Positions 7,152-31,565 of a stretch of 64,000 nucleotides of DNA are shown here, in pieces. Each line of letters opens with the position of its first letter. Within the stretch, counting starts at the first letter, position 1. The notes below the pieces were generated by a model. The model did not search any database and had not been told where the DNA came from. It saw nothing but the letters and a program-made list of their open reading frames with translations. The position numbers were made by a program, and so were the translations under genes. Source of the stretch: Myxococcota bacterium (GTDB lineage Bacteria > Myxococcota > B64-G9); the NCBI GenBank assembly GCA_041560255.1, contig JBFFBT010000001.1:157-64156 (forward strand), in the 5' to 3' direction.

Positions 7152-7161
7152 GGCGTATCAG

Positions 7162-7452: not shown

Positions 7453-7466
7453 CGGCTCAATGTGAA

Positions 7467-7545: not shown

Positions 7546-7553
7546 CTCTACAA

Positions 7554-9425: not shown

Positions 9426-9439
9426 ATCTGTCTCCTCCC

Positions 9440-12677: not shown

Positions 12678-12725
12678 CAGAATCGTCATTGAGTAAAACG
12701 ACTCGAATAAACGGAGGATATTCAC

Positions 12726-13808
12726 ATGCCAGTCGCGAAAGACAGAAAAACCGATATCGGCCCCCCTCATTATGAAAATTTCTTGCCGCCGGTCATTAAA
12801 AAGAATTACGGCAAGTGGAAGTACCACGAGATTGTCAAGCCCGGCGTGTTGATGCATGTCGGTGAGTCGGGTGACAAGCTTTGGTCCGTAAGGGCCGCTA
12901 CCCCCAGGCTTGCCAGCATTGAAACCCTGCGTCTTTTTGCGGACATCGCAGATGAGTTTGCAGACGGCTACATGCGCTGGACCAGCCGCAACAATATTGA
13001 GTTTTTGATCTCTGACGGGTCCAAGGTCGATCCGTGTATCGCCAAGCTGAAAAAAGAAGGTTATCCGGTCGGTGGAATCGGTCCGTCCATTACCAACATC
13101 GTGCATACCCAAGGATGGGTTCATTGTCACTCGGCCGCCACCGATGCTTCCGGTGTGGTCAAGGCCATCATGGATGACTTGTTCCCCTATTTCGAGGACA
13201 TGAAACTCCCTGGAAAGCTCCGGATCGCTTTTGCCTGTTGTCTGAATATGTGCGGTGCGGTGCATTGTTCGGACATCGCGGTATTGGGCGTACATCGAAG
13301 GGCTCCCGATATCAAACATGATCTCATGGCGAAGCAGTGCGAGATTCCTTCTACTGTCGCTGCATGTCCGACCGGCGCGATCCGGCCCAAGACAATAGAC
13401 GGGCATCAATCCGTCGAGGTTATTCAAGAGCAGTGCATGTATTGCGCCAACTGCTATACCGTATGTCCGGCCATGACCCTCAACGATCCCAATACGGACG
13501 GAATATCGATTTGGGTGGGTGGCAAGGTCAGCCAGGCACGTCACGAGCCCATGTTCTCCAAGTTGGCTATTCCTTTTATCCCCAACAATCCTCCCCGCTG
13601 GCCCGAAGTGGTCACGGCGGTCAAGAAGATTGTCGAAGTGTATGCCGCCAACGCGCGCCCATTCGAGCGCATGGGTGAATGGATCGAGCGGGTAGGTTGG
13701 CCGAAGTTCTTCGAGCTGACCGATATTCCGTTTACAAAGTATCATATTGATGACTTCACGCATGCAGGAGAGACGTTCAAACGTTCCATCCATTTCCGGC
13801 AGCGGTAG
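12726..13808 (+). CDS. dsrB: dissimilatory sulfite reductase beta subunit
   Basis: [57 protein letters not shown] align closely with DsrB. Confidence 0.92.
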
Positions 13809-13817
13809 GAGAAGGTT

Positions 13818-14051
13818 ATGGAAAGTGTCGAAAAAGTAGCCGAAGCGATGTACCAGATGGTCAAGGAATATCATGGCAAGAAAAACCTCAAGGCTCTCGA
13901 CCTCACCAAAGCCATGATCGAGAAATACGGAGAGGACAACTGCGATAAAAAGTTGTGTAAGCAGGCCATCCGGCAGTTGATCGATTCCGGGCGTTGTACG
14001 TATTCGTATGTTGGTGGAAGCTATATCGTTCTTCCGCCGGACAGCAAGTAA
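13818..14051 (+). CDS. dsrD: DsrD (small winged-helix protein of reductive dsr operons)
   Basis: 77 aa, sited immediately after dsrB. Carries the conserved C-terminal YSY..GG motif (CTYSYVGGSYIVLPP). Confidence 0.85.
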   Translation: MESVEKVAEAMYQMVKEYHGKKNLKALDLTKAMIEKYGEDNCDKKLCKQAIRQLIDSGRCTYSYVGGSYIVLPPDSK

Positions 14052-14064
14052 CGACATAAGTCAT

Positions 14065-14106
14065 CCCGGGGAGGATTACATTTCGAAGATTGTACTCCTC
14101 CCCGGG
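14065..14106 (+). terminator. GC-rich hairpin downstream of dsrD (candidate intra-operon attenuator/terminator)
   Basis: Perfect 11-bp inverted repeat cccggggagga ... tcctccccggg with a 20-nt loop, 14 nt after the dsrD stop. No clear U-tract. Confidence 0.4.
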
Positions 14107-14228
14107 AATTATCATGTAAGAAAAGAACGCGCCGATCTTTTACTCCGGATGGGAGTGGACGGGCTTATCATAAATATAATAATTCGTTTGATGTATGTGA
14201 AGCATTTGGCCGCGAAAGGTGGATTAGC

Positions 14229-15911: not shown

Positions 15912-15923
15912 CCATCGGCTTTT

Positions 15924-18020: not shown

Positions 18021-18564
18021 TCCTGAAAAAATCAAAGAATTACGCGGTAAAGTAGACGCCGAACCAAATTCGGTCGATGCGCACAACCACCTGGGCCTGG
18101 CTCTCTATCGAAACGGAGCTCTCAAAGAAGCCGCCAAGCTTCTCAGGCGGGCGGTGGAGTTGGACGCGGATTGCGCGGAGGCCTGGGTCAATCTGGGTGG
18201 TATCTTATTGTCTGCCTGGGATTTTCAGGGCTGTGTCGACGCCAATGCCAAAGCCGCCGATCTTCGGCCCGATCTGATGCAGGCGCATTATAACCGGGGG
18301 CTTGGATATATGTACTTGGGTGATGCGGGCAATATGGTTACATGCTTCGAACGGGTGCTTGATCTCGATCCCAAAAACCCTGGTGGTCATTATCATTTAG
18401 CGGTAGCTTTACTTGCGGTCGGCGACTGCGCTTCGGCTCGTGAAAGCCTTGATCGTGCCATGCAGCTGGGTTTCAACCCCGAGCCCGATTTTATCAAAGC
18501 GTTGGAGAAGCATAAAAACAGACAAGATGGTTCAGCGACCATCCCAACAACACACCAATCTTAA
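17998..18564 (+). CDS. TPR-repeat protein
   Basis: TPR-like helical repeats (AHNHLGLALYRNGALKEAAKLLRRAVELD ... AHYNRGLGYMYLGD). GTG start with a good SD. Overlaps the dsrN end by 23 nt. Confidence 0.6.
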   Translation: MKPAIKYSPEKIKELRGKVDAEPNSVDAHNHLGLALYRNGALKEAAKLLRRAVELDADCAEAWVNLGGILLSAWDFQGCVDANAKAADLRPDLMQAHYNRGLGYMYLGDAGNMVTCFERVLDLDPKNPGGHYHLAVALLAVGDCASARESLDRAMQLGFNPEPDFIKALEKHKNRQDGSATIPTTHQS

Positions 18565-18578
18565 GAGGAGGAAGTACT

Positions 18579-18896
18579 ATGGCGCATATAGACGTTGAGG
18601 GTGTACAGATTGAAATCGACGAGGACGGATTCATTCAAGAGCCGGATAAATGGAATCAGGGTGTTGCGGCGGCTTTGGGAAAGGGCGAAGGCGTCGATAA
18701 CTTGACCGACGACCATTGGAAAGTGGTAAATTTCCTTCGCGAGTATTATCTTGAGTTCGGTGTGGCTCCCATGATCCGGAAACTATGCAAATCCACCGGA
18801 TTTAAGCTCAATCAGATTTACGAGCTGTTTCCTTCCGGCCCTGCCAAAGGCGCCTGCAAAGTGGCAGGTTTGCCCAAGCCGACCGGTTGCGTATAA
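18579..18896 (+). CDS. dsrC: DsrC (TusE-like sulfur carrier / sulfite reductase gamma subunit)
   Basis: 105 aa. C-terminal arm ...CKVAGLPKPTGCV carries the two conserved Cys of DsrC. Strong SD AAGAGGAGGAAG. Confidence 0.9.
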   Translation: MAHIDVEGVQIEIDEDGFIQEPDKWNQGVAAALGKGEGVDNLTDDHWKVVNFLREYYLEFGVAPMIRKLCKSTGFKLNQIYELFPSGPAKGACKVAGLPKPTGCV

Positions 18897-19017
18897 CGGC
18901 GATTGGCTTGATCCGGGACGGGATCCAATCCAATACGGGTTTTCATGGGTATAGCCCGATGGAGTATTGATCCAAAGCCGCGGTGTCTTTCGGTTTTTGA
19001 CCGAAAAGGAGCGTGGT

Positions 19018-19575
19018 GTGAGCGGTACAATGGAGTATCGAAAGATCCTAATCGAAAAAAAATCCGCCATCCTCGAACGCTGGCGGAAACTTCTGCTGGA
19101 TACCTATTCTCCCGATGCAGCTTCGTTTTATGGAAGCGTCAAGGACAGATTTGCGAATCCGGTCGGAAGTGTTTTTTCTGATGCTACACAGAAACTGTTC
19201 GACCTGTTGTTGAATGAATCGGATCCCGAGCGGATTTGCGCTTGTCTCGAAGAAATGATCAAGATAAGAGCTGTTCAGGATTTTTCACCTTCCCGGGCGG
19301 TTGGTTTCGTCATTCTGCTCAAGCAGGCCGTTTTGGACGTACTGAACGAGCAGAACAAAGAAGTTGATGTTTTGCATCAATTCATCAAGTTTGGGGCCCT
19401 GATCGATCAAGTGAGCTTATTTGCCTTCGATATATATGTAAGCTGCAGAGAGCGAGTGTACCAGCTGAGGGTGAATGAAGTAAAGAGGAGGGTCTCGAGG
19501 GTCTTGAACTGGACGGAATCAACCGATCCGGGAGGTGATCCGGATCCGAAGCGGGATTGTCTCGAGTCGCAATAA
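19018..19575 (+). CDS. hypothetical protein immediately upstream of dsrM (DsrT-position protein)
   Basis: About 185-aa helical protein with no family recognised by eye. A gene at this position (dsrT) precedes dsrMKJOP in many organisms. The start is ambiguous: GTG 19018 has an SD, with ATG 18967 and ATG 19030 as alternatives. Confidence 0.45.
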   Translation: MSGTMEYRKILIEKKSAILERWRKLLLDTYSPDAASFYGSVKDRFANPVGSVFSDATQKLFDLLLNESDPERICACLEEMIKIRAVQDFSPSRAVGFVILLKQAVLDVLNEQNKEVDVLHQFIKFGALIDQVSLFAFDIYVSCRERVYQLRVNEVKRRVSRVLNWTESTDPGGDPDPKRDCLESQ

Positions 19576-19596
19576 CGATCAGCGAGGTTAGGTCAT

Positions 19597-20589
19597 ATGA
19601 AAGTCGCACTATCATTCATCGCAGTCCTCGGCCTGTTTGCGCTGGCCGTGTTGTTGGTGGAATACGCGGGTGCTCATTGGTTTTTTGGTGTCTTGATCCC
19701 CTACATGGCCATCGTATTGTTTTTGGTTGGTATGGTGCATCGGGTTTTGAGCTGGGCCAAGTCGCCGGTGCCATTTCGAATTCCGACTACTTGCGGCCAG
19801 GAAAAGTCATTGCCTTGGATCAAACAGAATAAACTCGACAATCCTTCCAGCCTGATCGGGGTGATAGGCAGAATGGCATTGGAAGTGTTGTTTTTCCGAT
19901 CTTTGTTTCGCAATACCAAGACGGAGATAAAAGAAGGTCCCCGAGTGGTCCACGGTTCGAACAAGTGGTTGTGGTTGGGTGGATTGGTATTTCACTACAC
20001 TTTTTTGATCATCTTTTTAAGACATCTTAGGTTTTTCACCGAGCCGGTGCCTGGATTTGTAACATTTTTAGAAAGTTTGGACGGCTTTTTCCAAATGGGT
20101 GTACCGGTGTTGTTTTTGACCAGCTTTCTTTTTTTGGCTGCGGTCGGTTATCTGTTTCTCAGACGTGTTCTGTCTCCCCAGCTACGCTACATCACGTTGG
20201 CCAATGACTATTTCCCGTTGTTTTTGCTGTTGGGCATCGGATGCACGGGAGTGTTACTCAGGCACTTTATGAAAACAGATGTTGTCGGCATCAAGGAGCT
20301 CGGCTTGGGGCTCTTGAGCTTCAACCCGGTAGCGCCTGCGGATGTCGACAGCCTATTTTATGGTCACTTGTTTTTGGTTTGTTTGTTGATAGGTTATTTC
20401 CCTTTCGGCAAGCTCGCTCACGCTGCGGGTGTGTTCATGAGCCCTACCCGAAATCTCGCCAACAACAACAGGATGGTTCGCCATGTCAATCCTTGGGATT
20501 ATCCGGTCAAGGTGCACACCTATGAAGAATACGAGGATGATTTCAGAGATAAAATGAAGGCGGCCGGAATCCCGGTGGATAAGGAGTAG
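19597..20589 (+). CDS. dsrM: DsrM (NarI/HdrE-like di-heme b membrane subunit)
   Basis: About 6 TM helices with conserved His. Its position opens the dsrMKJOP block. Confidence 0.8.
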   Translation: MKVALSFIAVLGLFALAVLLVEYAGAHWFFGVLIPYMAIVLFLVGMVHRVLSWAKSPVPFRIPTTCGQEKSLPWIKQNKLDNPSSLIGVIGRMALEVLFFRSLFRNTKTEIKEGPRVVHGSNKWLWLGGLVFHYTFLIIFLRHLRFFTEPVPGFVTFLESLDGFFQMGVPVLFLTSFLFLAAVGYLFLRRVLSPQLRYITLANDYFPLFLLLGIGCTGVLLRHFMKTDVVGIKELGLGLLSFNPVAPADVDSLFYGHLFLVCLLIGYFPFGKLAHAAGVFMSPTRNLANNNRMVRHVNPWDYPVKVHTYEEYEDDFRDKMKAAGIPVDKE

Positions 20590-20591
20590 CC

Positions 20592-22277
20592 ATGACTGAG
20601 GCAAAACCAGATCAGATGGAGTTTTATCAGCACGATCAGATGTCGAAAGTGGATTTTTGTCCTCCCAAGACGGGCTGGATGGATACACCCGCGGATTTCA
20701 GACCCGGCAGTTGGATTTATCCGGGCAAAGCCCGGCATCTCGAGTATCTGGATCTTCCCAACCCAAGAGAATGGTCCCCGACGGATGCAGACTGGAAGCT
20801 GCCTGAAAACTGGAAACAGATCGTTTTGGAAGGCATTCGGGAGAGACTCAGTAAGTTTCGCACCTTTAAGATCTTTATGGATATCTGTGTGCGTTGTGGG
20901 GCGTGCGCCGATAAATGTCATTTCTTCATAGGTGGTGGTGATCCGAAAAACATGCCGGTGCTTCGGGCGGAGCTTTTGCGATCTATTTATCGAAAAGACT
21001 TCACCATGTTGGGCAAGGTTTTCGGCAAGCTCGCGGGTGGAAGAGAGCTGACCTACGATGTCATCAAGGAGTGGTTCTATTATTTCTTTCAGTGCACGGA
21101 GTGCCGCCGTTGCTCGGTGTTTTGCCCTTACGGCATCGATACCGCCGAGATCACCATGATTGGAAGAGAGCTGCTCGGCTTGCTGGGTATCTACGTGAAT
21201 TGGATCATCGAGCCGGTGGCAAACTGCTTCAGAACCGGTAACCACCTCGGCATACAACCCCACGGCCTCAAGGATACTTTGGAGTTTTTTGCCGAAGACA
21301 TCGAGGAATCGACCGGGATCAGCATCGATATACCCATCAACAAAAAGGGTGCCGAAGTATTGTTTGTCACGCCGTCGGGTGATTTCTTGGCGGATCCGGG
21401 TACGTTTACCTGTATGGGGTACATGGCCCTGTTTCATGAAATCGGGTTGGACTACACTTGGAGCACATATGCTTCCGAGGGCGGCAATTTCGGGTTGTTC
21501 ACGTCTCACGAGGTCATCAAAAGGCTCAACGCAAAAATATATGCCGAGGCCAAAAGGTTGGGCGTGAAGTGGATCTTGGGAGGTGAGTGCGGTCACATGT
21601 GGCGCGTATTGCACCAATATATGGATACAGTCAGCGGTCCGGCTGATTTTCTGGAAGTTCCCAAGTCACCCATAACCGGTACGGTGTTCGAAAACGCCAA
21701 GTCGACCAAGATGATACATATCGTCGAGTTTACCGCCGATTTGATCAAACACGGCAAGTTGAAGCTTCGCCCGGAACGCAATGATCACATCAGGGTAACG
21801 TATCATGATTCCTGCAACCCGGCCAGGGCGGCGGGGATTTTGGAAGAGCCGAGGTACATACTCAAAAACGTATGCAACCACTTCTACGAAATGCCAGAAA
21901 ACACCATTCGTGAGCAGACCTTTTGTTGTGGAGGCGGCGCGGGGCTGGGAACCGACGAAAACATGGAAATGCGTCTTCGAGGTGGTCTACCCCGGGGAAA
22001 TGCAGTGAAGTTTGTACAAGACAAGTTCGGGGTCAACCAGTTGGCGGCCATGTGTGCCATCGATCGGGCCACCTTGGTTACCGTGTGTGATTATTGGGCC
22101 CCCGGAGTAGCCGTCACCGGTATTCATGAGTTGGTGGCCAACGCCATGATCATGAAAGGCGAGAAAGAGCGGGAGGTCGACTTCCGCTTGGAGCCGCAAC
22201 CTCATTGGAGCTCCGGAGCGACGCAGGCTGCGGGTGAAAAGAAGAACGGGGCAGCGGAGGACCCTAGCAATGCATGA
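20592..22277 (+). CDS. dsrK: DsrK (HdrD-like catalytic FeS subunit with CCG domains)
   Basis: CVRCGACADKC and CTECRRCSVFCP ferredoxin motifs plus CCG-type Cys motifs (CNPARA..., FCCGGGAG). SD is GGATAAGGAG. Confidence 0.85.
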   Translation: MTEAKPDQMEFYQHDQMSKVDFCPPKTGWMDTPADFRPGSWIYPGKARHLEYLDLPNPREWSPTDADWKLPENWKQIVLEGIRERLSKFRTFKIFMDICVRCGACADKCHFFIGGGDPKNMPVLRAELLRSIYRKDFTMLGKVFGKLAGGRELTYDVIKEWFYYFFQCTECRRCSVFCPYGIDTAEITMIGRELLGLLGIYVNWIIEPVANCFRTGNHLGIQPHGLKDTLEFFAEDIEESTGISIDIPINKKGAEVLFVTPSGDFLADPGTFTCMGYMALFHEIGLDYTWSTYASEGGNFGLFTSHEVIKRLNAKIYAEAKRLGVKWILGGECGHMWRVLHQYMDTVSGPADFLEVPKSPITGTVFENAKSTKMIHIVEFTADLIKHGKLKLRPERNDHIRVTYHDSCNPARAAGILEEPRYILKNVCNHFYEMPENTIREQTFCCGGGAGLGTDENMEMRLRGGLPRGNAVKFVQDKFGVNQLAAMCAIDRATLVTVCDYWAPGVAVTGIHELVANAMIMKGEKEREVDFRLEPQPHWSSGATQAAGEKKNGAAEDPSNA

Positions 22278-22653
22278 TGCTGGCAAAGTGATCCTAGGAC
22301 TGGGCATTTTTCTGGCTTTGGTCACGTTTCCCATTTGGTTTACCGTGGCCACGGGTAACTACGGTTATACTCCCGAGCTTCAAATGCCCGAAGGCTATAC
22401 ACAATGTGTCGAGTCAAAAGAGTACATGACCTCCTGGCACATGGACTTGCTCGATCAATGGCGGGATGAAGTGGTTCGCGAGGGCAAGCGTTACTACGTT
22501 TCGAAAACGTATGGCGATAAGCACGAGATGAGCCTGACCAAAAACTGCATGAAATGTCACAACGACAAGGCGCAATTTTGTGACAAATGCCACAATTATT
22601 TGGGTGTCGAGCCGTATTGTTGGGATTGCCACATCGAGCCCGAAGGGAACTGA
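22270..22653 (+). CDS. dsrJ: DsrJ (periplasmic triheme cytochrome c)
   Basis: Three CxxCH motifs (CMKCH, CDKCH, CWDCH) and an N-terminal TM/signal anchor. Start at ATG 22270 with SD GGAGG. The longer ORF-track start at 22234 overlaps dsrK. Confidence 0.8.
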   Translation: MHDAGKVILGLGIFLALVTFPIWFTVATGNYGYTPELQMPEGYTQCVESKEYMTSWHMDLLDQWRDEVVREGKRYYVSKTYGDKHEMSLTKNCMKCHNDKAQFCDKCHNYLGVEPYCWDCHIEPEGN

Positions 22654-22656
22654 GCC

Positions 22657-23448
22657 ATGGACGACAGCAGAAGAAACTTTCTCAAGGTTGCGGGTTGCTC
22701 ATTGTTGGGGGCTGCCTGGGGTGTGCCTATAGTCCGTGCAGTGAGTAAGAGTTTTACAACCGAGGCGGCGCCCGAAGCATTACGTGCCAAACAATGGGCC
22801 ATGGTGGTGGATTTGAAAAGCTGTGAGCGTGATGACATACGGGCCGCTGCGGCCGAGGCGTGCCACCGTGAGCACAATGTGCCGTCCATCAAAGACGTCG
22901 AAGACGAGGTCAAATGGATCTGGAGTGAGGACTACGCGCATACCTTCCCCACCGAGATGCATACGTATACAGACGTTGCGTTGAGAAAAAAGCCGGTATT
23001 GGTTCTGTGCAATCATTGCGAACGGCCGCCTTGCGTGCGGGTATGTCCAACCCAGGCGACCTGGAGACGAGCGGACGGAATCGTGATGATGGATATGCAT
23101 CGCTGCATTGGATGCCGATATTGCATGGTGGCTTGCCCGTATGGATCCCGCAGCTTCAACTTCAAAGAGCCCTGGAGCACAGAAGAGCGAAAAAAATTGA
23201 GCTCGGATTTTCCAACTCGGTGCAAAGGGGTAGTGGAAAAGTGCAATTTCTGCGCGGAACGGCTGGCTCTTGGAAAACCTCCTGCGTGCGTCGAAGCGGT
23301 CAGACAATTGCCGGACGCCGAAGAAGCTCTCGTTTTCGGCGATTTGGGCGATTCGAGCTCGCAGGTATCCATGTTGCTGCGTACCCGCCACGGCATCCGA
23401 AGAAAACCCAACCTGGGCACCGGTCCCCAGGTGTACTATCTGGTGTGA
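22657..23448 (+). CDS. dsrO: DsrO (periplasmic 4x[4Fe-4S] ferredoxin-like subunit, Tat signal)
   Basis: RRNFLKVAG Tat motif. Multiple CxxCxxCxxxCP motifs (CNHCERPPCVRVCP, CIGCRYCMVACP, CNFCAERL). Confidence 0.85.
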   Translation: MDDSRRNFLKVAGCSLLGAAWGVPIVRAVSKSFTTEAAPEALRAKQWAMVVDLKSCERDDIRAAAAEACHREHNVPSIKDVEDEVKWIWSEDYAHTFPTEMHTYTDVALRKKPVLVLCNHCERPPCVRVCPTQATWRRADGIVMMDMHRCIGCRYCMVACPYGSRSFNFKEPWSTEERKKLSSDFPTRCKGVVEKCNFCAERLALGKPPACVEAVRQLPDAEEALVFGDLGDSSSQVSMLLRTRHGIRRKPNLGTGPQVYYLV

Positions 23449-23455
23449 GGTCATC

Positions 23456-24613
23456 ATGTTGGAGAATGCACTGCGTGGTGGTAAACGATATTGGAGCCTG
23501 CTGGCTCTTTGGTCGGCCCTGATTGTCGTGGGCGTTGTCGCATATTTGGTGCAGTACAATCGCGGGTTGACTGTCACCGGATTGAGCCGGGATGTGCCCT
23601 GGGGTTTTTATATCGCCCAGTTGACATTTCTGGTGGGAGTGGCGGCGTCGGCGGTCATGGTGGTGCTGCCGTATTATCTGCATAACTTCAAAGCCTTCGG
23701 AAAAATGGTCATCTTGGGAGAGTTTTTGGCCATCTCGGCGGTGGTCATGTGCATGTTGTTTGTATTCGTCGATATGGGTCAACCCATGCGGGTGCTCAAT
23801 GTCGTGTTGCATCCAACCCTCAACTCATTGATGTTTTGGGACTTGACGGTGCTTTCCGGTTACCTGCTTCTCAATCTCGTCATAGCTTGGGTGACCTTCG
23901 GCGCCGAGAGAAAATCGATAGCTCCTCCCAAGTGGATCAAGCCTATCATCATATTATCCATTCCTTGGGCGGTAAGCATTCATACCGTGACGGCTTTCTT
24001 GTACTCAGGGTTGGAAGCTCGTCCGTTTTGGATGACCGCCATACTGGCTCCCCGGTTTTTGGCGTCGGCTTTTGCCTCCGGACCCAGCTTGCTCATCATC
24101 CTGGCGCTCATTGTAAGGCGCTACACCAAGTTCGATCCGGGCAAAGAAGCCATTCAGGCCTTGGCCAAGATCGTGACATATGCTATGACGGTGAATATCT
24201 TTTTCGTCATGGTCGAGATGTTTACGGGTTTGTACAGCGATATCCCGGAACACACCCACCATTTTCAGTACCTGTTTTTCGGGCTGCACGGCAAGAACGC
24301 GCTGGTGCCATGGATGTGGACTTCGCAGTTGTTGGCCCTGACGGCAGCCGTTTTGTTGATGTTTCCGGGCGTACGCCGAAATGAAGGTTTCCTGCCGGTG
24401 ATTTGCCTGGCTGTCATTGTCGCCATTTGGATTGAAAAAGGCCTGGGCATGGTCGTCACCGGTTTCATCCCGTCTCCCATGGAGAAAGTCATAGAGTACA
24501 ATCCAACCCTTCTCGAAGGTTTGATTACTGTGGGCGGGTACGGCATCGGATTTTTCATCCTGACCGTGTTGTATAAAATTGCAATATCCATCCGGGAAAA
24601 ACTCGAGCAGTAA
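23456..24613 (+). CDS. dsrP: DsrP (NrfD/PsrC-like integral membrane quinone-interacting subunit)
   Basis: About 10 TM helices. Sits directly after dsrO. The in-frame upstream extension to 23270 lies inside dsrO and is rejected. Confidence 0.8.
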   Translation: MLENALRGGKRYWSLLALWSALIVVGVVAYLVQYNRGLTVTGLSRDVPWGFYIAQLTFLVGVAASAVMVVLPYYLHNFKAFGKMVILGEFLAISAVVMCMLFVFVDMGQPMRVLNVVLHPTLNSLMFWDLTVLSGYLLLNLVIAWVTFGAERKSIAPPKWIKPIIILSIPWAVSIHTVTAFLYSGLEARPFWMTAILAPRFLASAFASGPSLLIILALIVRRYTKFDPGKEAIQALAKIVTYAMTVNIFFVMVEMFTGLYSDIPEHTHHFQYLFFGLHGKNALVPWMWTSQLLALTAAVLLMFPGVRRNEGFLPVICLAVIVAIWIEKGLGMVVTGFIPSPMEKVIEYNPTLLEGLITVGGYGIGFFILTVLYKIAISIREKLEQ

Positions 24614-24662
24614 AAACACCTCCTGTCGGTTTGTACCACACGAAAATTCAGGGAAAGCTATC

Positions 24663-26366
24663 TTGAAAAACGGGGAAAAAAAAGTTGTTATTGTGGGAGC
24701 GTCTGCTGCCGGACTTCGGTGCGCGGCCAGGCTCGTCAGGCTGAACCCCTCTTTCCGGGTAACCGTTGTAGAAAAAAGTGATGTGTATTCTTATGCCGCC
24801 TGCGGTCTTCCGTATGTGTTGTCCGGGGATATCGAAGATATCTTGATGCTACGAAAAAGCAAGGACGGCATGCTGCGAGACAGCGGATACTTCAGCTCGG
24901 TCAAAGGTGTCGAGGTGCTCGCCGGATGGAACGCAACCCGGATCGACAAGCAAAAGAAACAATTGCACATTCAACAACAAACCGATCTTCGCACGCTTGA
25001 CTACGACGGGCTCGTGTTGGCCACCGGAGCGCGGGCCAAACGTCTGCCTGGTTTGCCGGTACATCCGCGGGTTCGTACCTTTCATACGTACGAAGATGTC
25101 CGCCCGTTGACCGAGGATCTGGCCCACGGTCGAATAAAATCAGTAGCCGTCATCGGTGCGGGTCTGGTAGGTCTGGAGCTTACCGAAGCGTTTACGGCCA
25201 TGTGGGGAGCCGAAGTAACCCTGTTGGAGGCCGGCTCGCATCCCTTGCCGTTCAGCGTGGACTGTGAAGTGGGCGGTTTGGTCGGAAAGGTGCTTGCGGA
25301 TCAAGGCGTTGCATGTGTTTTCGATTGCCGGGTCGAGCGTCTCGAGGCTCATGACGGGGGTGTGAGGATCGGTTTACCCACCGGCACGATCGAGGTGGAT
25401 GCCGTGATTGCAGCCTTAGGAGTATCCGCGAATGTGGATTTGGCTGCCGAAGCCGGCATTCGATTGGGCCGAAGCGGTGCGGTTGCGGTGGATTCGGATT
25501 TTCGCACTTCAGAGAACGACATTTGGGCTTGCGGTGATTGCATTGAGCAGGTGCATGCCTTGAGAAAGGATCCGGTTTGTATGCCGCTAGGCTCATTGGC
25601 CAATCGGCAAGGCAGAACCTTGGCCAACCTGCTGTCCGGCAGAAAGGATCGTTTTCCCCCCATCGTGGGTGCGACGGCGGTCAAGATTTTCGATTGGAAT
25701 CTGGCGACAGTTGGAATCAACCGACAGGCGGCCGAGCAAGAAGGCTTACAAACCCGCAGCGCATGGGTGTCTATGCAGGATACTGCCGATTATTGGCCCG
25801 AGGTCAAAAACATATTTATTCAGATGCTTTACTCACCCGAATCCGAAAGGGTGTTGGGAGTGCAGGCAGTGGGTGAAGGCGAGGTCGTAAAGCGCATCGA
25901 CGTGGCTGCTCAATTGTTGGCAAACCAAGCGGTGCTTGAGGATTTTGCCCACATCGAACATGCCTACGCGCCACCCTATGCCCCCGCATTGGAGCCGCTG
26001 GCAGTGGCCGCCATGGCGGCGTTGAACCAGCAAGACGGGGTGGAAGGTTTGTCTCCACTTTGTGACCTGCAAGCGTATGATTTGTTGGATGTCAGGCATG
26101 CATCGGAGGTTGAGAGCATGCCGGTTGGGTCCCAAGCCCCGCCCCTGCACGTGCCCCAACACGAAATCAAAAACCGCATTGCCGAGATTGAAAACGCTCA
26201 TTCTTCGAATGATCGAACCAAACCCTGGATGGTGTTGTGTGCCCGAGGGGCTCGATCGGCCGAAGTTGCGCGTGGACTTGTTGGCAGAGGACTCGAGGCG
26301 TGCTATCTGGGTGGTGGATTGATTTGGCGGCGCTTGGCAAGCAAAGAGTCCGGCGAAGACTCCTAA
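24663..26366 (+). CDS. CoA-disulfide reductase / NAD(P)H persulfide reductase-like flavoprotein fused to C-terminal rhodanese domain
   Basis: Redox-active Cys in SYAACGLPYV, two Rossmann GxGxxG motifs (VVIVGASAAG, VAVIGAGLVG), and a C-terminal rhodanese active-site loop CARGARS. The start is uncertain (TTG 24663 preferred, ATG 24579 overlaps dsrP). Confidence 0.7.
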   Translation: MKNGEKKVVIVGASAAGLRCAARLVRLNPSFRVTVVEKSDVYSYAACGLPYVLSGDIEDILMLRKSKDGMLRDSGYFSSVKGVEVLAGWNATRIDKQKKQLHIQQQTDLRTLDYDGLVLATGARAKRLPGLPVHPRVRTFHTYEDVRPLTEDLAHGRIKSVAVIGAGLVGLELTEAFTAMWGAEVTLLEAGSHPLPFSVDCEVGGLVGKVLADQGVACVFDCRVERLEAHDGGVRIGLPTGTIEVDAVIAALGVSANVDLAAEAGIRLGRSGAVAVDSDFRTSENDIWACGDCIEQVHALRKDPVCMPLGSLANRQGRTLANLLSGRKDRFPPIVGATAVKIFDWNLATVGINRQAAEQEGLQTRSAWVSMQDTADYWPEVKNIFIQMLYSPESERVLGVQAVGEGEVVKRIDVAAQLLANQAVLEDFAHIEHAYAPPYAPALEPLAVAAMAALNQQDGVEGLSPLCDLQAYDLLDVRHASEVESMPVGSQAPPLHVPQHEIKNRIAEIENAHSSNDRTKPWMVLCARGARSAEVARGLVGRGLEACYLGGGLIWRRLASKESGEDS

Positions 26367-26381
26367 AAGACGGGTAAAATC

Positions 26382-28163
26382 ATGTATCCAGTTATGTTGC
26401 AGTTGAAAGGACGCCGCTGCCTGGTGGTGGGTGGAGGAGGCGTCGCGTTGCGTAAGGTGCAAGGGTTGCTCCAAGAAGGCGCGCAAGTGGTGGTGGTATC
26501 GCCGAAGCCGCTCGATACTTTGCTTGCCATGTCGAGTCAGGGTAGGTTGAGGCTCGAACTGCGCACTTATCGTCCCGGCGAGGTGGCGGACTATGTTTTG
26601 GTTTTTGCCGCCACCGACGATCGGGAAGTAAACCAAGCCGTTTATCAAGACGCTGAAGCCCACGGCGTATGGGCCAATGTTGCCGACGATCCTGAGTTGT
26701 GCTCGTTTCATTTGCCTTCGCGGGTGCGCAGGGGCGCTTTGCAGTTGGCTGTCGGCTCAGCCGGGCAGGCTCCGTTCGCCGTAAGAAGAATGCGTCAGAT
26801 GTTGGAACGTAAATTTGGTCCCGAGTGGGCCGAGTGGGCCGATGCGGCCGCCAGGTTTCGAGCTTCGGTCATCAGTGCCGGTCGTCCTCGCGCCGATCAA
26901 GAAGCCATGTACGACGCATTTTTCTCGCAGACCATCGATCCTATGAGTCTCAAGGCGCGTGTGCCCTCGGCGTCTGAAGAAAGAGAGTGGTTGGCTTTGA
27001 CATCCTGTCAATCCGAGTTTGGTGATGATGAGGAAATCTGCCACCAGACCAGCGCATCTCATGACAGTCGGAAAGGATTTGTGTCGTTGGTGGGAGCGGG
27101 TCCGGGAGATCCTGGATTGCTTACGTTGCGGGCTCGACAGAGGTTGATGCGCGCCGATGTGGTGGTGTACGACAATTTGGCTTTGCCGGCGCTGCCGTGT
27201 GATTTGCCGGAAAAAACCGAGCTTCATTGTGTGGGCAAACAGGCCGGTCATCATCCAGTCCCCCAGCACGAAATCAACGCCATGCTGCTTCGGCTTGCAG
27301 ATCAAGGCAAAAGGGTGGTCAGGCTCAAGGGAGGTGACCCGTTTGTGTTCGGTCGGGGAGGCGAAGAAGCCGAGGCTTTGGCCAAGGCGGGTATCGCCTT
27401 TGAAGTGGTGCCGGCGGTGACCGCCGGGGTGGCGGTGCCCAGCTACGCCGGTATCCCCATCACCCACCGGCAGGAAGTGGTCCGAGTGACTTTTGTCACT
27501 GCGCACGAAAGTGAGAAGACCGACGGCCCGCAGGTGCGCTGGGATTTGCTGGGGCAGGATCCCCACGCTACTCTAATAGGCTACATGGGAGTAACCAGCT
27601 TGCCGCAAGTGGTGGAGCGATTGTTGCAGGCCGGCATGGATCCAAATACTCCGGCTGCTATGATTGAAAGGGGCACTACCGCCCACCAACGCTCGGTGAT
27701 ATCCAGTCTGTCCGATCTACCCAATGCGATCAAAAAAGCCGGAATGCGCCCACCGGGACTCTTTGTCATCGGCCCTACCGTCCGGCATGCCGGACGGCTG
27801 GATTGGTATGGCGGCAGACCTCTGGCTGGTCAGCGGCTTGCGATCATGGAGCCGTCCGGAAGCCTGGGCGGGCATCTGGAGGAAAACGGAGCCCAACTGG
27901 TGGAAGTATCCTATCCTTTGAGCCAAGCCGCCCGGGTGGTTATCGGCGCCATGCCTATCACCGGATGCGTGCTTCGGACCGAAAGCGAAGTCGAAGCGCT
28001 CGACGAAGAGCGTATCTCGACGGACTGGGGACCCGATGTCGTGGCATGGTGCCTGAGCAAGGAAGCCGCCGTGCGGGCGCGTGCATTGGGGTGGCCGATC
28101 GTAAAAGAATTTGCTATACTTCCCACACCTGAACAGGTCGTGCTCGCCATGCAATCGGCTTAA
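26382..28163 (+). CDS. multifunctional siroheme synthase (precorrin-2 dehydrogenase/ferrochelatase domain + uroporphyrinogen-III C-methyltransferase + HemD-like C-terminal domain)
   Basis: N-terminal CysG-N/SirC Rossmann (LVVGGGGVALRKVQGLLQEGAQVVVVSP). Central SAM methyltransferase (VGAGPGDPGLLTLRA, GGDPFVFGRGGEE). C-terminal roughly 170 aa is HemD-like. Confidence 0.8.
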   Translation: MYPVMLQLKGRRCLVVGGGGVALRKVQGLLQEGAQVVVVSPKPLDTLLAMSSQGRLRLELRTYRPGEVADYVLVFAATDDREVNQAVYQDAEAHGVWANVADDPELCSFHLPSRVRRGALQLAVGSAGQAPFAVRRMRQMLERKFGPEWAEWADAAARFRASVISAGRPRADQEAMYDAFFSQTIDPMSLKARVPSASEEREWLALTSCQSEFGDDEEICHQTSASHDSRKGFVSLVGAGPGDPGLLTLRARQRLMRADVVVYDNLALPALPCDLPEKTELHCVGKQAGHHPVPQHEINAMLLRLADQGKRVVRLKGGDPFVFGRGGEEAEALAKAGIAFEVVPAVTAGVAVPSYAGIPITHRQEVVRVTFVTAHESEKTDGPQVRWDLLGQDPHATLIGYMGVTSLPQVVERLLQAGMDPNTPAAMIERGTTAHQRSVISSLSDLPNAIKKAGMRPPGLFVIGPTVRHAGRLDWYGGRPLAGQRLAIMEPSGSLGGHLEENGAQLVEVSYPLSQAARVVIGAMPITGCVLRTESEVEALDEERISTDWGPDVVAWCLSKEAAVRARALGWPIVKEFAILPTPEQVVLAMQSA

Positions 28164-28219
28164 TCAAAGCTGGTTGGGGCCGGGCGCCTTTTGGCAAGAA
28201 CATACCAAGGAGTGCAGAC

Positions 28220-30619
28220 ATGAAAAGAGTTTTGCCGGTATTTCTGGCGGGGGTGTTGTCGACGGTTTTTTCTGCTTGCCCTGAGCATTCGAGCACCAGC
28301 TGTCCACTTGGATATTCGGAATGCGGCGATAAATGCGTGGATCTGGACACAGACGCAAAAAACTGCGGCGCCTGTAAAAAAGCTTGCGATACCAGCGAAG
28401 TATGTGTCACTTCGAGCTGTGAGCTGAACTGTCCTCCCGGACTGGAAAAGTGTGATGATTCTTGTGTCAACATACATTATGATCCCAAGCACTGTGGTGC
28501 TTGCAACAAAGCTTGTCAAATGGGCGAAGTGTGTCTGGAAGGATGTGTGGCTTTTTGCGCTCCCGGAGAAACCATTTGTGATGGAGCCTGTGTCAATCTC
28601 GACGATAACCCGAGCTACTGCGGTGACTGCGATACAACCTGTGGGGATGAGCAACTTTGTCGAGACGGAGGTTGTTTCGGATATCCCAACGGTTTTGCCG
28701 CCAAAGACGACTGGGGCGAGATCTGGGATGGGCTGCAACGATCGGCCAAGACCTGGGAAGAGGCCGATAAAACCTGCAAATCTTTGGGAGGCAGGTTGCC
28801 GACAGTGACCGAGCTGTATCGAAACAACGCCGCCACCGGCACCAGCAACATCGCGTCTCCCAGCGATGTCTCTACCTTGTGGACCCTGATCGTCTCGCAC
28901 GTGCAACAGCCAGGCCGGGTTTCTGTAAGCTTGAGCGACGGAAAAATCGAGTACCATCCGGAGTCGGATGCGCTGTCCTTTCGCTGTGTGTGGCCGGATA
29001 TCATCCGGGAGGAGTTTTCGGGCGACGCATGTTACGGCCCTCCGGGGGCCGAGTGTCGTCCCAATGGGTATTTTTGGAACGTGGATGCCTATGACAGACC
29101 GGCTCTGAGCTACCCCGCCGCACAACACGAATGTAACTTTTACTATGCGTCCATCCCCAGAGCGCGGGACTTACAAGAGATCGCCCAAAGAGGCATGGCC
29201 AACCCGACGAATCAGTGGCTTTGGACGTCGAGCGGCAAGTATTGGTACAGCGGTGGGTATGGTGTCGCGGTCGCCAAGGTACAATCCAACCCGCAACCCA
29301 ACTGGGATTATGATCACAACACGAGCAGCGGCAGCTACTCTTGGGGTCATGCTCAAAGAAACTTTCGATGTATTGGAAAAAAATCCAAAGAGATTGGAAA
29401 CCTCCCGTCCGATCCGGCCTGCCAGCATGATGCCTGTTTCACAATAACACAAAGAAGATCCCGCCTGATTGCGGACAACAAAGATCGCCCGGCTGCCGAT
29501 TGGGCCCAGGCGGCCGAGACCTGCCGGAAGCTGGGTGGATCGCTCCCGAGCTTTGACGAAATCGGAGATCTGATCCAAGCGGGCTGGGAAAACGGATCGG
29601 ATGCCTGGATGTGGGCCGGCCAGCCTGTGTATTGGTCTGATGGAACCAATGGTCATTATGGAACCTGGTTGTACAAATGGTCCGGCAAGGGCGGCCTCAA
29701 CTGGTTTCCCATCAATGGAAACGGCGCCTATTTTGCGGGCATCGCGGTAACCCCATCCGCTACCCAGCGAATCTACCGCTGTATATGGCACGAGACCTTT
29801 GAGGATGTATCAGACCCTGGCCAGTGCGGTCCGGGAGAAAACCGTGTGTTTGACGCGGACGGCTTTGCGTGCAAGGCGGTTGTCAAGGGTACTTCGTGCG
29901 ATACGAACGGAGCCAACTGCAAAGCCCATCCGGGAGGCAAGGAGTATCTCGATGCTTGGCATAACGCTTGGGACTTGAGTCATCGCGAGCAAAGGACATA
30001 TCTTGATGCCAAAAAAGTGTGCGAAAGCATCAACGGTCGTTTGCCGACCGCCTCCGAGCTGTCTCGGCTGGTGGCAGCGGAAAACCCGACGGACTATTTA
30101 TGGACCTTGGTGCCTTCTTACCAGGATGATCATCACATTGTGGTGCGACTGTCGGACGGAGGGATATCCGCCACCAACATCTCATCGGATACCAAACATT
30201 ACTTCAGATGTATCTGGCCGGCATCCAAGGGGGATGTCTTCAGCGGTTCCGCCTGTCACGGTGATGCCTTAGCGCCTTGTTTTCAAACCCTTTTGGGTCG
30301 CTACACCGTGGACCAGCAGGATCGCCTCCCGCTACCCAACGCCGCGGCAGCCTGGGAGTGTGCCTTTTACGGAGGTAGGCTTCCGGATATGGACGACTTT
30401 GCAAGCCTGGTGCACGCCGGTGCTCCAAATGGGTCGAACAATTGGCAATGGCTCTCGGTGCCTGCCTACTGGCATTCCGCAAATTGGGGTTTGTTTTTAG
30501 GTCGATGGGAGGGGAAGGGCCTAGAGACTTGGAAGTTTGACTATTCTGGTTGGGGTTCGCTGTGCCAGGAATCAGACAACAGAGCTTTCAGATGTATATA
30601 TTCTGATATGTTGGAGTAA
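28220..30619 (+). CDS. secreted lipoprotein with four myxo-type Cys-rich repeats followed by four C-type lectin-like domains
   Basis: Signal peptide plus lipobox (VFSAC). Repeats CGDKCVDLDTDAKNCGACKKAC and similar. Four copies of the CTLD signature W(E/A)xA...C...GGRLP(T/S)..EL....W......FRC(I/V)W. Confidence 0.7.
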   Translation: MKRVLPVFLAGVLSTVFSACPEHSSTSCPLGYSECGDKCVDLDTDAKNCGACKKACDTSEVCVTSSCELNCPPGLEKCDDSCVNIHYDPKHCGACNKACQMGEVCLEGCVAFCAPGETICDGACVNLDDNPSYCGDCDTTCGDEQLCRDGGCFGYPNGFAAKDDWGEIWDGLQRSAKTWEEADKTCKSLGGRLPTVTELYRNNAATGTSNIASPSDVSTLWTLIVSHVQQPGRVSVSLSDGKIEYHPESDALSFRCVWPDIIREEFSGDACYGPPGAECRPNGYFWNVDAYDRPALSYPAAQHECNFYYASIPRARDLQEIAQRGMANPTNQWLWTSSGKYWYSGGYGVAVAKVQSNPQPNWDYDHNTSSGSYSWGHAQRNFRCIGKKSKEIGNLPSDPACQHDACFTITQRRSRLIADNKDRPAADWAQAAETCRKLGGSLPSFDEIGDLIQAGWENGSDAWMWAGQPVYWSDGTNGHYGTWLYKWSGKGGLNWFPINGNGAYFAGIAVTPSATQRIYRCIWHETFEDVSDPGQCGPGENRVFDADGFACKAVVKGTSCDTNGANCKAHPGGKEYLDAWHNAWDLSHREQRTYLDAKKVCESINGRLPTASELSRLVAAENPTDYLWTLVPSYQDDHHIVVRLSDGGISATNISSDTKHYFRCIWPASKGDVFSGSACHGDALAPCFQTLLGRYTVDQQDRLPLPNAAAAWECAFYGGRLPDMDDFASLVHAGAPNGSNNWQWLSVPAYWHSANWGLFLGRWEGKGLETWKFDYSGWGSLCQESDNRAFRCIYSDMLE

Positions 30620-30723
30620 GGACTTCCTTCTCAAGATGCTTTCGCGTCGTTTTAATGGAGCATAAGATCAAAATCGTCATCCTGGAGATGTGTAGAACCA
30701 GGATCCAGTAATGATCAAACCGC

Positions 30724-31074
30724 TTAGAGAGAGTCGTATAAGTCGTTCCAGAGAGGATTGTTTTTTTCAATCAGAGCGATTTTCCAAGCACGTTTCCAAT
30801 GTTTGAGTTTATTCTCGCGAGCAATGGCATATGATGCGCTTTGGTGCAGTACAAAATACACCAATTTGTGTACAGCATATTTTTTGGTGAATCCATCAGC
30901 TGTACTGTTTCTGTGGTTCCAACATCGTTTGGCCAGATCGGAAGTTACGCCTATGGAAAGAAGCTTTTTCGCCTCATAAGCACCGACGCTGGAATATGTT
31001 CGTTGGAAAATGCAAAATGTGTTGTTGAGGCAGGCAAAGATTATTTGTTTTGCATCAAAAACGACCAGCCTCAT
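30724..31074 (-). CDS. GIY-YIG nuclease superfamily protein (N-terminus possibly disrupted)
   Basis: C-terminal two-thirds matches the small GIY-YIG family (IGVTSDLAKRCWNHRN ... KKYAVHKLVYF ... IARENKLKHWKRAWKIALIE). The N-terminal motif is degenerate and abuts the transposase fragment. Confidence 0.55.
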   Translation of the reverse strand: MRLVVFDAKQIIFACLNNTFCIFQRTYSSVGAYEAKKLLSIGVTSDLAKRCWNHRNSTADGFTKKYAVHKLVYFVLHQSASYAIARENKLKHWKRAWKIALIEKNNPLWNDLYDSL

Positions 31075-31231
31075 AGCCGAAGCAAAGCGCATTCTTGAAA
31101 ACAAGCAAGAAGTGTTGGCTGAGACTGTAGACATCGTAGGCAAATACCAGGTAATTCGACGTCTGTACCTGACCGAAGTAATGGCAAATTATTTACTCGC
31201 CAGTTGCATAAAATGCCGTCATCCTGGATAG
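30841..31231 (+). pseudogene. frameshifted fragment of an ISAs1/IS4-like (H-repeat type) DDE transposase
   Basis: LISTDAGICSLENAKCVVEAGKDYLFCIKNDQP resembles the ...DAMGCQ...I....G.DYLLALKGNQ region of ISAs1-family transposases. Only about 60 aa survive, continuing in another frame (31010-31231). Confidence 0.45.
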
Positions 31232-31565
31232 ATTCTATCCAGGATCCATTGTTAAAATTATAGATTCTGGCTTAAAGCATGCAAGAATGACATTGTTTCC
31301 AAAAGCCACAAAAAGTTAAATCCCGGCTCAATCAAATATATGCACACAGTTTGTTGTAGTCAGCTAATTTCGTGCGCCCTCAATACGTCGTTATATGCAA
31401 CGTTGGGGTATACTCAATACAACAGGGTAAAAATTGGATCTTGTGTCAGAAATACCTTCGAACAATCCAATACCCATATAGAAGGCCTATGAACCCCAAC
31501 CTGGTTGTACGATAGGGATTTTGGTGGGTGGGGCCCCATACTTCAGGAATGACGAGGAGGTTGCC

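Follow-up and report, generated by a model that had tools for sequence, protein, structure and literature searches.

A coenzyme A-disulfide reductase-rhodanese flavoprotein with a conserved place behind dsrP is probably a sulfane-sulfur reductase working with the Dsr system

Why would a flavoprotein of the coenzyme A (CoA)-disulfide reductase (CoADR) family, carrying a rhodanese domain (RHD), be encoded within a gene cluster for dissimilatory sulfate reduction? The window analysed here, a 64,000-nucleotide stretch of a Myxococcota contig (JBFFBT010000001.1), encodes a complete dissimilatory sulfate-reduction (dsr) island. Within it, an intact open reading frame at 24663-26366 of the forward strand specifies a 567-residue protein of the CoADR-RHD type, also represented by NADH-dependent persulfide reductases (Npsr). 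This protein is probably a cytoplasmic, homodimeric, FAD-containing and NADH-preferring sulfane-sulfur reductase that works with the Dsr system and belongs to a distinct clade fixed in the dsr(T)MKJOP unit of clusters of the DsrD plus DsrL-2 type. The enzyme class is ordinary; the operon-fixed variant is new, and a role in the last, debated steps of dissimilatory sulfite reduction is plausible. What is said below of function beyond the enzyme class, we infer.

The domain content of the protein defines its class. Pfam recognizes Pyr_redox_2 (PF07992, E = 2e-54, residues 6-295) and Pyr_redox (PF00070, E = 5e-15, residues 160-234), followed by the dimerisation domain; with Foldseek, this amounts to the FAD, NAD and dimerisation domains of a pyridine-nucleotide disulfide oxidoreductase. 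Among solved structures, the best phmmer match is to 6pfz of Archaeoglobus fulgidus (AfNpsr; E = 7e-94, residues 7-553), and full-length alignments are also obtained to 8a56 (the CoA persulfide reductase CoAPR of Enterococcus faecalis), 3icr (Bacillus anthracis) and 3nta (Shewanella). In the phmmer alignment, the C-terminal motif CARGARS lies opposite CAIGLRS of 6pfz. The C-terminal 113 residues alone give weak matches to single-domain rhodaneses, among them 3gk5 at E = 0.006 (VICAHGNRSA versus VLCARGARSA).

An AlphaFold2 model built from 32 homologues has a mean predicted local distance difference test score of 92.5 and a predicted template-modelling (TM) score of 0.91. Superposed by Foldseek on 6pfz, it aligns over 553 columns with a root-mean-square deviation of 1.8 Å and TM-scores of 0.91/0.95; 8a56, 3icr/3ict and 3nta follow, and TM-scores across 6pfz, 8a56, 3icr and 3nta span 0.87-0.91. 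The lowest-confidence internal blocks of the model are residues 371-380, which include Y377-W378, and 431-440, which include H433-Y435. We take Y377-W378 and H433-Y435 to correspond to the active-site tyrosines that CoADR receives from the partner subunit, and the two blocks would fit loops that become ordered only in the CoA-bound dimer. The first-pass annotation had called a CoADR-family flavoprotein with a C-terminal rhodanese domain, had proposed comparison with the Shewanella Npsr and Bacillus CoADR-RHD structures, and had made the call depend on the rhodanese cysteine of CARGARS. The Pfam core, phmmer alignments, motifs and predicted fold bear the call out; the comparison yields full-length alignment with, and superposition on, 3nta and 3icr; and the cysteine, Cys526, is invariant in 32 homologues, so that the call stands.

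The same alignment of 32 homologues, at 50-63% identity, shows that Cys47, Glu189, Gly529 and Arg531 are likewise invariant (Table 1; for residue mapping, the 6pfz sequence was rebuilt from the printed alignment). Cys526 sits in a six-residue C-x4-R type loop and is conserved at 90% or more in dsr-linked and in distant CoADR-RHD groups alike; Arg26 of helix alpha-1 is conserved to at least the same degree in the dsr-linked and the other CoADR-RHDs. According to the AfNpsr report (PMC7969121), strict use of NADH, to the exclusion of NADPH, is attributed to Glu183, and a lid loop that is missing from the bacterial structures closes over bound CoA. Because Glu189 corresponds to Glu183 and residues 65-71 to the AfNpsr lid, the window protein is predicted to be NADH-preferring and of the lidded type. 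Positions 64 and 69, in the lid region, are gaps in 30 of 36 other CoADR-RHDs. The lid and Arg26 lend indirect support to a tightly bound CoA.

Comparison with characterized relatives sharpens this picture. AfNpsr has the same length class and domain order, is 33-35% identical by Foldseek, and holds in common the pairs Cys42/Cys47, Cys519/Cys526 and Glu183/Glu189 together with the CoA-pocket lid loop; its host is also a sulfate reducer. It differs in lying outside the dsr-linked clade described below and in being without S14, A46, W181, W368, W378, H433 and A533. The E. faecalis (8A56), B. anthracis (3ICR/3ICT) and Shewanella loihica (3NTA) enzymes share the fold and the two catalytic cysteines, the one beside the flavin being Cys42 in E. 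faecalis and Cys43 in S. loihica, and it was from these enzymes that the swinging-pantetheine mechanism was derived; but they are only 27-29% identical, have no lid loop and occur in other gene contexts; the enterococcal CoAPR, for example, is controlled by the sulfide-stress repressor CstR (PMC9405070).

Three other family names were tried and rejected. The protein is related to CoADR but is not filed as a genuine CoA-disulfide reductase because its equivalog scores lie below cutoff (TIGR03385, 310 bits versus 578.8; NF007123, 275 versus 458). An H2O-forming NADH oxidase or NADH peroxidase is excluded by NF046103 (167 bits versus a cutoff of 600) and by the presence of the rhodanese domain, and the NCBIfam equivalog for MerA is far below its cutoff.

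The strongest evidence for a tie to sulfite reduction comes from gene position. A scan in which each prokaryotic species was represented by a single genome gave 80 loci, which were searched by tblastn with the Dsr proteins of the window, and a metagenome scan added a core locus (L088) and at least 79 outgroup loci. Among the loci listed, homologues with 41% or higher identity belong to the same dsr cluster, and share its strand, in 24 of 24 cases (L001-L018; L034 and L053, which are contig-end fragments; P0005, P0012, P0112 and L088). In 22 of these, across lineages, the gene directly follows dsrP, with gaps of -4 to 182 nucleotides; the metagenome homologues P0012 and P0112 are among them. 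The common order is dsr(L)N-TPR-C-T-MKJOP, then the CoADR-RHD gene, usually with cysG next. For homologues at 37% identity or less, dsrMKJOP was found nearby in 0 of 60 loci of the species-level scan, and none of the roughly 139 loci listed with more distant homologues (60 plus 79) has dsrMKJOP beside the gene. Hosts of the dsr-linked form are Acidobacteriota (Thermoanaerobaculia and Ca. Sulfomarinibacteraceae), a Myxococcota metagenome-assembled genome (MAG), a 'Pseudomonadota' MAG, a Fibrobacteraceae-labelled MAG and unclassified bacteria; the dsr clusters closest to that of the window belong to an unclassified MAG (L001, L034) and the Myxococcota MAG (L002). The first-pass annotation had placed the gene between dsrP and a siroheme synthase gene, which the above-cutoff scores of NF045798 (DsrP) and NF007922 (CysG) confirm, and had guessed a functional tie to the dsr array from this one locus; that guess is now much stronger, given 24 of 24 loci in several phyla, the lack of such linkage in the roughly 139 more distant loci, and a gene fusion in Firmicutes, considered below.

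The link to cysG is looser than that to dsrP, and hemA-like or other genes are often inserted. In several acidobacterial loci the insert is a glutamyl-tRNA reductase-like gene of about 355 codons (TCHRLELY motif, recognized by eye); the downstream part would then be a tetrapyrrole or siroheme supply module. In L081, the locus of P0005, a block of about 9.7 kb (287-9970) separates dsrP from the CoADR-RHD-cysG pair. It contains PIN-domain genes, one of them beside a PhdYeFM antitoxin gene, an AAA_14/DUF4143 ATPase gene and unrelated genes, and looks like a recent insertion into an otherwise fixed junction.

The dsr-linked proteins also form a lineage of their own. In a neighbor-joining tree, 49 clade sequences are monophyletic without intruders, and AfNpsr falls in a sister assemblage; dsr context was checked for the window and 17 of the 49, the rest being database homologues of similar identity. 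Twelve positions are near-invariant in the clade and rare outside it: S14, L18, A46, H141, W181, W368, W378, H433, P441, A533, E534 and G550. A search of 1.84 billion cluster representatives returned 18,947 relatives, among which the core clade is represented, at 50% identity, by few sequences (P0125, P0126, P0129). A looser, L018-like group (P0128, P0130-P0138) has only S14, L18, A46, W181 and W368 in common. L018 is its sole member with known context; it is dsr-linked, and alone defines the outer boundary of dsr linkage. Farther out, distant CoADR-RHD genes adjoin a selenium/sulfur (Se/S)-carrier gene in Synergistaceae and selB in Desulfovibrionaceae (L022 9488-9880; L030 6653-8596; L036 1179-3095), which hints at a possible selenium or sulfur-carrier role for those branches.

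A second, independent connection to sulfite reduction appears in Firmicutes. Five outgroup loci have weak DsrA/B-like matches next to the CoADR gene: in L044, L124 and L149 both parts form one reading frame of about 860 codons, and in L046 and L122 the CoADR-RHD and sulfite reductase parts are adjacent genes. The domain order of the fusion is Pyr_redox_2, Pyr_redox_dim, rhodanese, NIR_SIR_ferr and NIR_SIR with a ferredoxin insert, although Pfam detects the rhodanese in L124 alone, with 28 bits. Its motifs are intact: SYAGCGLPY; LLVCxxGKR; the siroheme/[4Fe-4S] motif CKGTTC...CPNNC; and two CxxCxxC. For the C-terminal part, the top match is the F420-dependent sulfite reductase Fsr (7np8, E = 3e-35), with DsrB and DsrA ranking next; its nearest NCBIfam models are AsrC, DsrB and DsrA, all below cutoff. 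The best 120 database matches to the fusion are all full-length (855-1060 residues), nearly all of them sharing 66-92% identity with the query along its entire length. The fusion occurs in gut and other Firmicutes, with Blautia, Pseudoflavonifractor and Clostridium represented by complete genomes, and the annotations read only 'FAD-dependent oxidoreductase' or 'hypothetical'. Like the dsr-linked clade, the fusion pairs a CoADR-RHD having both catalytic cysteines with a siroheme sulfite reductase; unlike it, the CoADR-RHD part is about 30-33% identical and outside the clade, and the partner is a single Fsr-type domain and not DsrAB/DsrC/DsrMKJOP. CoADR-RHD and siroheme sulfite reductase have thus become linked on two occasions, through an operon in one case and a fusion in the other. 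The Blautia-type fusion may point to an overlooked hydrogen-sulfide-producing enzyme of the human gut; full-text literature searches found no paper on a CoADR-RHD-sulfite reductase fusion.

Position, monophyly and fusion bear on two explanations in which the dsr neighbourhood has little functional meaning. One is a housekeeping role, namely detoxification of reactive sulfur species, maintenance of CoA redox state or NADH oxidation, with co-location serving co-regulation only. AfNpsr can act as an NADH oxidase, and the study describing it suggests that it protects the cell or serves a housekeeping function (PMC7969121); the E. faecalis CoAPR is a sulfide-stress enzyme (PMC9405070); and distant relatives occur in unrelated contexts, such as next to selB or a Se/S-carrier gene. 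However, such an enzyme would not be expected to keep exactly the same operon place in 22 of 24 loci from different phyla or to form a clade confined to dsr clusters, the independent joining of a CoADR-RHD and a sulfite reductase in one polypeptide speaks for direct coupling, and the equivalog cutoffs for CoA-disulfide reductase and NADH oxidase are missed by a wide margin, so that this explanation appears distinctly unlikely. The other is a stand-alone terminal reductase for respiration of elemental sulfur (S0) or polysulfide, as proposed for Shewanella Npsr, in what is merely a sulfur-metabolism island. The family is defined by polysulfide and persulfide reductase activity and, according to PMC7969121, correlates with S0 reduction, and Ca. 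Sulfomarinibacter is predicted to respire sulfur (Flieder 2021). Yet a soluble enzyme that oxidizes NADH does not conserve energy on its own, the strict linkage with dsrP and the sulfite reductase fusion would go unexplained, and A. fulgidus is described as having an active Npsr while being unable to respire S0 (PMC7969121); this explanation is very improbable. Both are weakened because the operon position is strict, the clade monophyletic and the fusion independent.

If the protein is a sulfane-sulfur reductase coupled to the Dsr system, the mechanism can be sketched from its relatives. In E. faecalis CoAPR, Cys42 and the rhodanese Cys508 are both required, and persulfidation in cells is confined to Cys508; about 27 Å separate the two residues, and bound CoA bridges them, its pantetheine arm swinging between them in simulations (PMC9405070). 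AfNpsr reduces the persulfides of cysteine, glutathione and CoA as well as polysulfide, with kcat/Km of about 1e4 per M per s and with NADH only, and is inactive on disulfides (PMC7969121). By analogy, the reaction of the window protein would involve: loading of sulfane sulfur as a persulfide on the rhodanese Cys526; attack by the thiol of tightly bound CoA, after which CoA-SSH would swing over to the flavin of the partner protomer; attack by Cys47, which would free H2S and leave a Cys47-S-S-CoA mixed disulfide; and reduction of that disulfide by FADH2, which NADH would regenerate. Synteny and gene fusion suggest that the role may be the clearing or turnover of zero-valent sulfur arising at DsrAB/DsrC. 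Candidate sulfur sources are a DsrC persulfide or trisulfide, and thiosulfate or polysulfide by-products. The enzyme would then offer an NADH-linked, soluble route for final sulfide release beside the quinol-linked DsrMKJOP. The redox potentials of the S0/H2S and NAD+/NADH couples are close together, so the enzyme could also run the reductive branch of sulfur disproportionation.

One specific version of this proposal makes thiosulfate the sulfur donor. As a cytoplasmic NADH-dependent thiosulfate reductase, the protein would take the sulfane sulfur at its rhodanese domain, pass sulfite to DsrAB and reduce the Cys526 persulfide to H2S; it would also recycle thiosulfate formed as a by-product of DsrAB. 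Rhodaneses are by definition thiosulfate sulfurtransferases, the loop here is of the six-residue C-x4-R type, and the three-part Firmicutes fusion would hold every activity needed to turn thiosulfate into two sulfides. Thiosulfate cleavage with NADH is uphill, though, and would depend on removal of sulfite. A YeeE/YedE-type transporter gene beside tusA lies in the window, about 20 kb downstream, but this cluster is not adjacent to the CoADR-RHD gene. Rhodanese-dependent entry of thiosulfate into the Dsr pathway has been proposed for Ruegeria, yet the rhodanese knockout there had no phenotype. AfNpsr itself comes from a thiosulfate reducer, but thiosulfate is not among the substrates described in the available text of its report (PMC7969121). 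On balance, thiosulfate as the donor is unlikely.

Two other systems share features with the window protein. Like the CoADR-RHD, DsrL-2 is a soluble pyridine-nucleotide-dependent flavoprotein of the same dsr clusters, and the window encodes both. DsrL-2, which is defined by a YRR motif (PMC7596348), differs in being an NfnB/GltD-like iron-sulfur flavoprotein that is NADPH-preferring (YRR) and delivers electrons to DsrAB; the window CoADR-RHD has no iron-sulfur clusters, cysteine/persulfide chemistry and the NADH-type Glu189. The Rhd-TusA-DsrEFH relay of Dsr-type sulfur oxidizers is similar in that sulfane sulfur on its way to or from DsrC enters at the cysteine of a rhodanese. Unlike the window protein, whose rhodanese is fused to a persulfide-destroying reductase and which has no DsrE or TusA fold, that relay carries sulfur only.

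A further possibility runs the enzyme in reverse. Sulfide plus NAD+, or imported zero-valent sulfur, would load Cys526 with a persulfide that is handed to DsrC and oxidized by DsrMKJOP/DsrAB, Apr and Sat, replacing Rhd-TusA-DsrEFH in reverse-running or disproportionating bacteria. The closeness of the S0/H2S and NAD+/NADH potentials would allow this, the clade is found in clusters with DsrL, which was first known from sulfur oxidizers, and the enzyme would fill the 'unknown sulfur transfer mechanism' of peatland acidobacterial clusters, should these carry the clade. Disproportionation has moreover been suggested for Ca. Sulfomarinibacter (Flieder 2021), whose family includes several of the dsr-linked loci. 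Nevertheless, all characterized family members run reductively; DsrD and YRR-motif DsrL-2, both encoded in the window, are associated with reductive-type DsrAB; TusA is already present in the window; and docking of DsrC to the rhodanese domain is unsupported. Oxidative sulfur loading is therefore improbable.

Within the reductive reading, the probable partner sets the window protein apart from its relatives. By our own electron count for the DsrC trisulfide model, credited to Santos and colleagues (2015), formation of DsrC trisulfide from sulfite takes two electrons, and its conversion to reduced DsrC and H2S takes four, necessarily via a persulfide or disulfide stage. An NADH-driven persulfide reductase whose gene accompanies dsrK could take one of these two-electron steps, could rescue persulfidated DsrC, or could just as well dispose of thiosulfate or polysulfide by-products. 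In a bolder reading, CoADR-RHD would be an unrecognized catalytic partner of siroheme sulfite reductases, releasing sulfide in an NADH-dependent reaction from DsrC trisulfide or persulfide or an equivalent enzyme-bound species. It would provide bacteria of the DsrL-2 type with a fully soluble, NAD(P)H-driven route of sulfite (or thiosulfate) reduction parallel to DsrMKJOP, and would have been hard-wired independently as the Firmicutes fusion. We offer this bolder reading tentatively, with more doubt than belief.

Several observations weigh against a dedicated Dsr-coupled sulfane-sulfur reductase in this locus. The Pfam rhodanese profile PF00581 is below threshold on the C-terminal 127 residues (13.3 bits, E = 0.11, cutoff 22.2), and a precomputed match is present in 0 of the best 120 database homologues; typical CoADR-RHDs, by contrast, have a rhodanese that Pfam recognizes. 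With PF00581 at only 13.3 bits, the assignment relies on predicted structure and full-length homology, on which the presence of a C-terminal rhodanese domain is regarded as established despite the score. Adjacency to dsrP is interrupted by insertions of 3.7 kb in L011 and 9.7 kb in L081. A weak promoter-like match at 24552-24579, within the 3' end of dsrP, would allow separate transcription. All clade members seen come from MAGs or metagenomes. In a mirror-tree comparison, pairwise identities correlate with those of DsrK at r = 0.59, DsrP at 0.40 and DsrM at 0.28, against a reference of 0.62 for DsrK versus DsrP, values that agree, as weak evidence, with the gene being passed on together with its cluster. 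To our knowledge, classical sulfate reducers do without a CoADR-RHD gene, which Dsr chemistry therefore does not strictly require. In PMC7969121, the archaeal AfNpsr gene is not reported to be dsr-linked, its role is called a puzzle, and its lid over the CoA pocket is taken to favour small substrates. On that view, a protein such as DsrC would be an awkward substrate.

The enzyme family is well known; its association with the dsr cluster apparently is not. Full-text literature searches found no description of a dsr-CoADR-RHD association, although they cover subscription papers poorly and prior mention is possible. The gene is unmentioned in Hausmann 2018 (with supplements), Flieder 2021, Neukirchen 2023, Loeffler 2020 and DiSCo; Flieder 2021 draws non-dsr genes in its cluster figure without discussion. 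Two matters are still argued: how sulfur exits the DsrAB/DsrC cycle, and what decides the direction of DsrL-containing 'reductive-type' clusters. No known enzymes distinguish sulfur reduction, oxidation and disproportionation from genomes alone (Flieder 2021). Thermoanaerobaculia, Ca. Sulfomarinibacteraceae and other lineages abundant in sediment and soil keep this gene at the end of their dsrMKJOP unit; it is a candidate, open to cloning, for the sulfane-sulfur step that is still missing, and the clade may serve as a genomic marker. It also bears on why the sulfate reducer Archaeoglobus keeps an active Npsr, which the AfNpsr authors treat as an oddity whose role they could not explain (PMC7969121).

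The start of the gene deserves correction. The frame is open from TTG 24579 through the stop at 26364-26366. The public call for an identical protein (P0001, 557 residues) begins at GTG 24693, corresponding to Val11 and lying 10 codons downstream, and thereby truncates the opening beta-strand of the Rossmann fold (KKVVIVGAS; residues 7-11 form this strand in the model), which a start at TTG 24663 retains; an independent call (P0121, 567 residues) uses 24663. This start is the better of the two, being favoured by the AGGGA ribosome-binding site, the homologue alignments and the predicted strand 7-11. Gaps of 49 nucleotides after dsrP and 15 before the siroheme synthase gene flank the coding sequence. 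A promoter and terminator scan of 18000-31500 found no terminator-like site between dsrP and the CoADR-RHD gene, and fewer promoter-like matches than in shuffled sequence; an Rfam scan of the window gave zero matches. The short same-strand gaps and terminator-free dsrP junction suggest co-transcription with dsrMKJOP.

Table 1. Coordinates of the CoADR-RHD gene, its functional elements and the surrounding genes, with features of comparison loci (locus prefix given)
Feature	Position	Strand	Basis or remark
CoADR-RHD/Npsr-type flavoprotein gene, 567 residues	24663-26366	+	ORF, phmmer to 6pfz, AlphaFold2/Foldseek
Ribosome-binding site AGGGA	24650-24654	+	Shine-Dalgarno 8 nt 5' of TTG 24663; read from sequence
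FAD-binding Rossmann motif G12-A-S14-A-A-G17	24696-24713	+	G12, S14, G17 invariant in 32 homologues; Pyr_redox_2
Redox-active Cys47 codon	24801-24803	+	in SYAACGLPY (24789-24815); invariant in 32 homologues; = AfNpsr Cys42
Lid-loop equivalent, residues 65-71	24855-24875	+	maps to AfNpsr 60-66; G69 invariant in 32 homologues
NAD-binding motif G165-A-G167-x-x-G170 to Glu189 (end of beta-2)	25155-25229	+	Pyr_redox; Glu189 = AfNpsr E183
Dimerisation domain, residues 339-443	25677-25991	+	Pyr_redox_dim PF02852, E = 1e-11
C-terminal rhodanese domain, residues ~455-560	26025-26342	+	alignment to 6pfz, 8a56, 3icr, 3nta; 3gk5 E = 0.006
Rhodanese active-site loop C526-A-R-G-A-R531-S	26238-26258	+	C526, G529, R531 invariant; C526 = AfNpsr Cys519
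sat, qmoC, qmoB, qmoA, aprA, aprB	395-9877	-	
LysR regulator	10117-11106	-	
dsrA, dsrB (array 11451-19575)	from 11451	+	Pfam/NCBIfam
dsrD	13818-14051	+	
dsrL-2-type flavoprotein	14229-15911	+	YRR motif
dsrN with C-terminal DVU0298-type domain	15924-18020	+	
TPR protein	17998-18564	+	
dsrC	18579-18896	+	C-terminus CKVAGLPKPTGCV, both C-terminal Cys
dsrT-like RsbRD_N protein	18967-19575	+	
dsrM	19597-20589	+	Pfam/NCBIfam
dsrK	20592-22277	+	Pfam/NCBIfam
dsrJ	22234-22653	+	Pfam/NCBIfam
dsrO	22657-23448	+	Pfam/NCBIfam
dsrP	~23456 (true start)-24613	+	NF045798, 461 bits versus cutoff 350
CysG-type siroheme synthase (DsrV/DsrW-like)	26382-28163	+	NF007922, 442 bits versus cutoff 400
Se/S-carrier (DUF3343) protein	44697-44924	-	
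Cysteine desulfurase-like class-V aminotransferase	44921-46093	-	
TusA	46115-46330	-	CPEP motif
YeeE/YedE-type sulfur transporter	46352-47452	-	
Fused CoADR-RHD-sulfite reductase ORF, ~860 residues	L044:10010-12589; L124:2354-4948; L149 ~2597-5188		
Glutamyl-tRNA reductase-like inserts	L005 9146-10204; L013 11599-12666; L015 1992-3074; L016 11665-12732		

Other parts of the island show features of their own. The C-terminal ~150 residues of DsrN, which resembles cobyrinic acid a,c-diamide synthase, match the DVU0298 family at E = 2e-13, below the curated cutoff (50 versus 75 bits); some relatives (L082, L083) encode the DVU0298-type part in a small ORF of its own. The tetratricopeptide repeat (TPR) protein of about 188 residues between dsrN and dsrC recurs at the same position, with 40-52% identity, in most related loci that cover the region, and may be another unnamed conserved member of such dsr clusters. 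The siroheme synthase carries a C-terminal extension of about 125 residues (~468-593) with no Pfam match; homologues in related loci cover it too, and its start (PLAGQRLAIMEP) resembles, judged by eye, the N-terminus of uroporphyrinogen-III synthase. Directly 3' of cysG, 28220-30619 (+) encodes a 799-residue protein with an N-terminal MXAN_6577-like cysteine-rich domain, weak lectin/link-domain matches and no obvious relation to sulfur metabolism. The sulfur-trafficking cluster at 44697-47452 (-), in which no DsrE2 was seen, is reminiscent of YedE-TusA-DsrE2 clusters, whose use as markers of disproportionation has been discussed.

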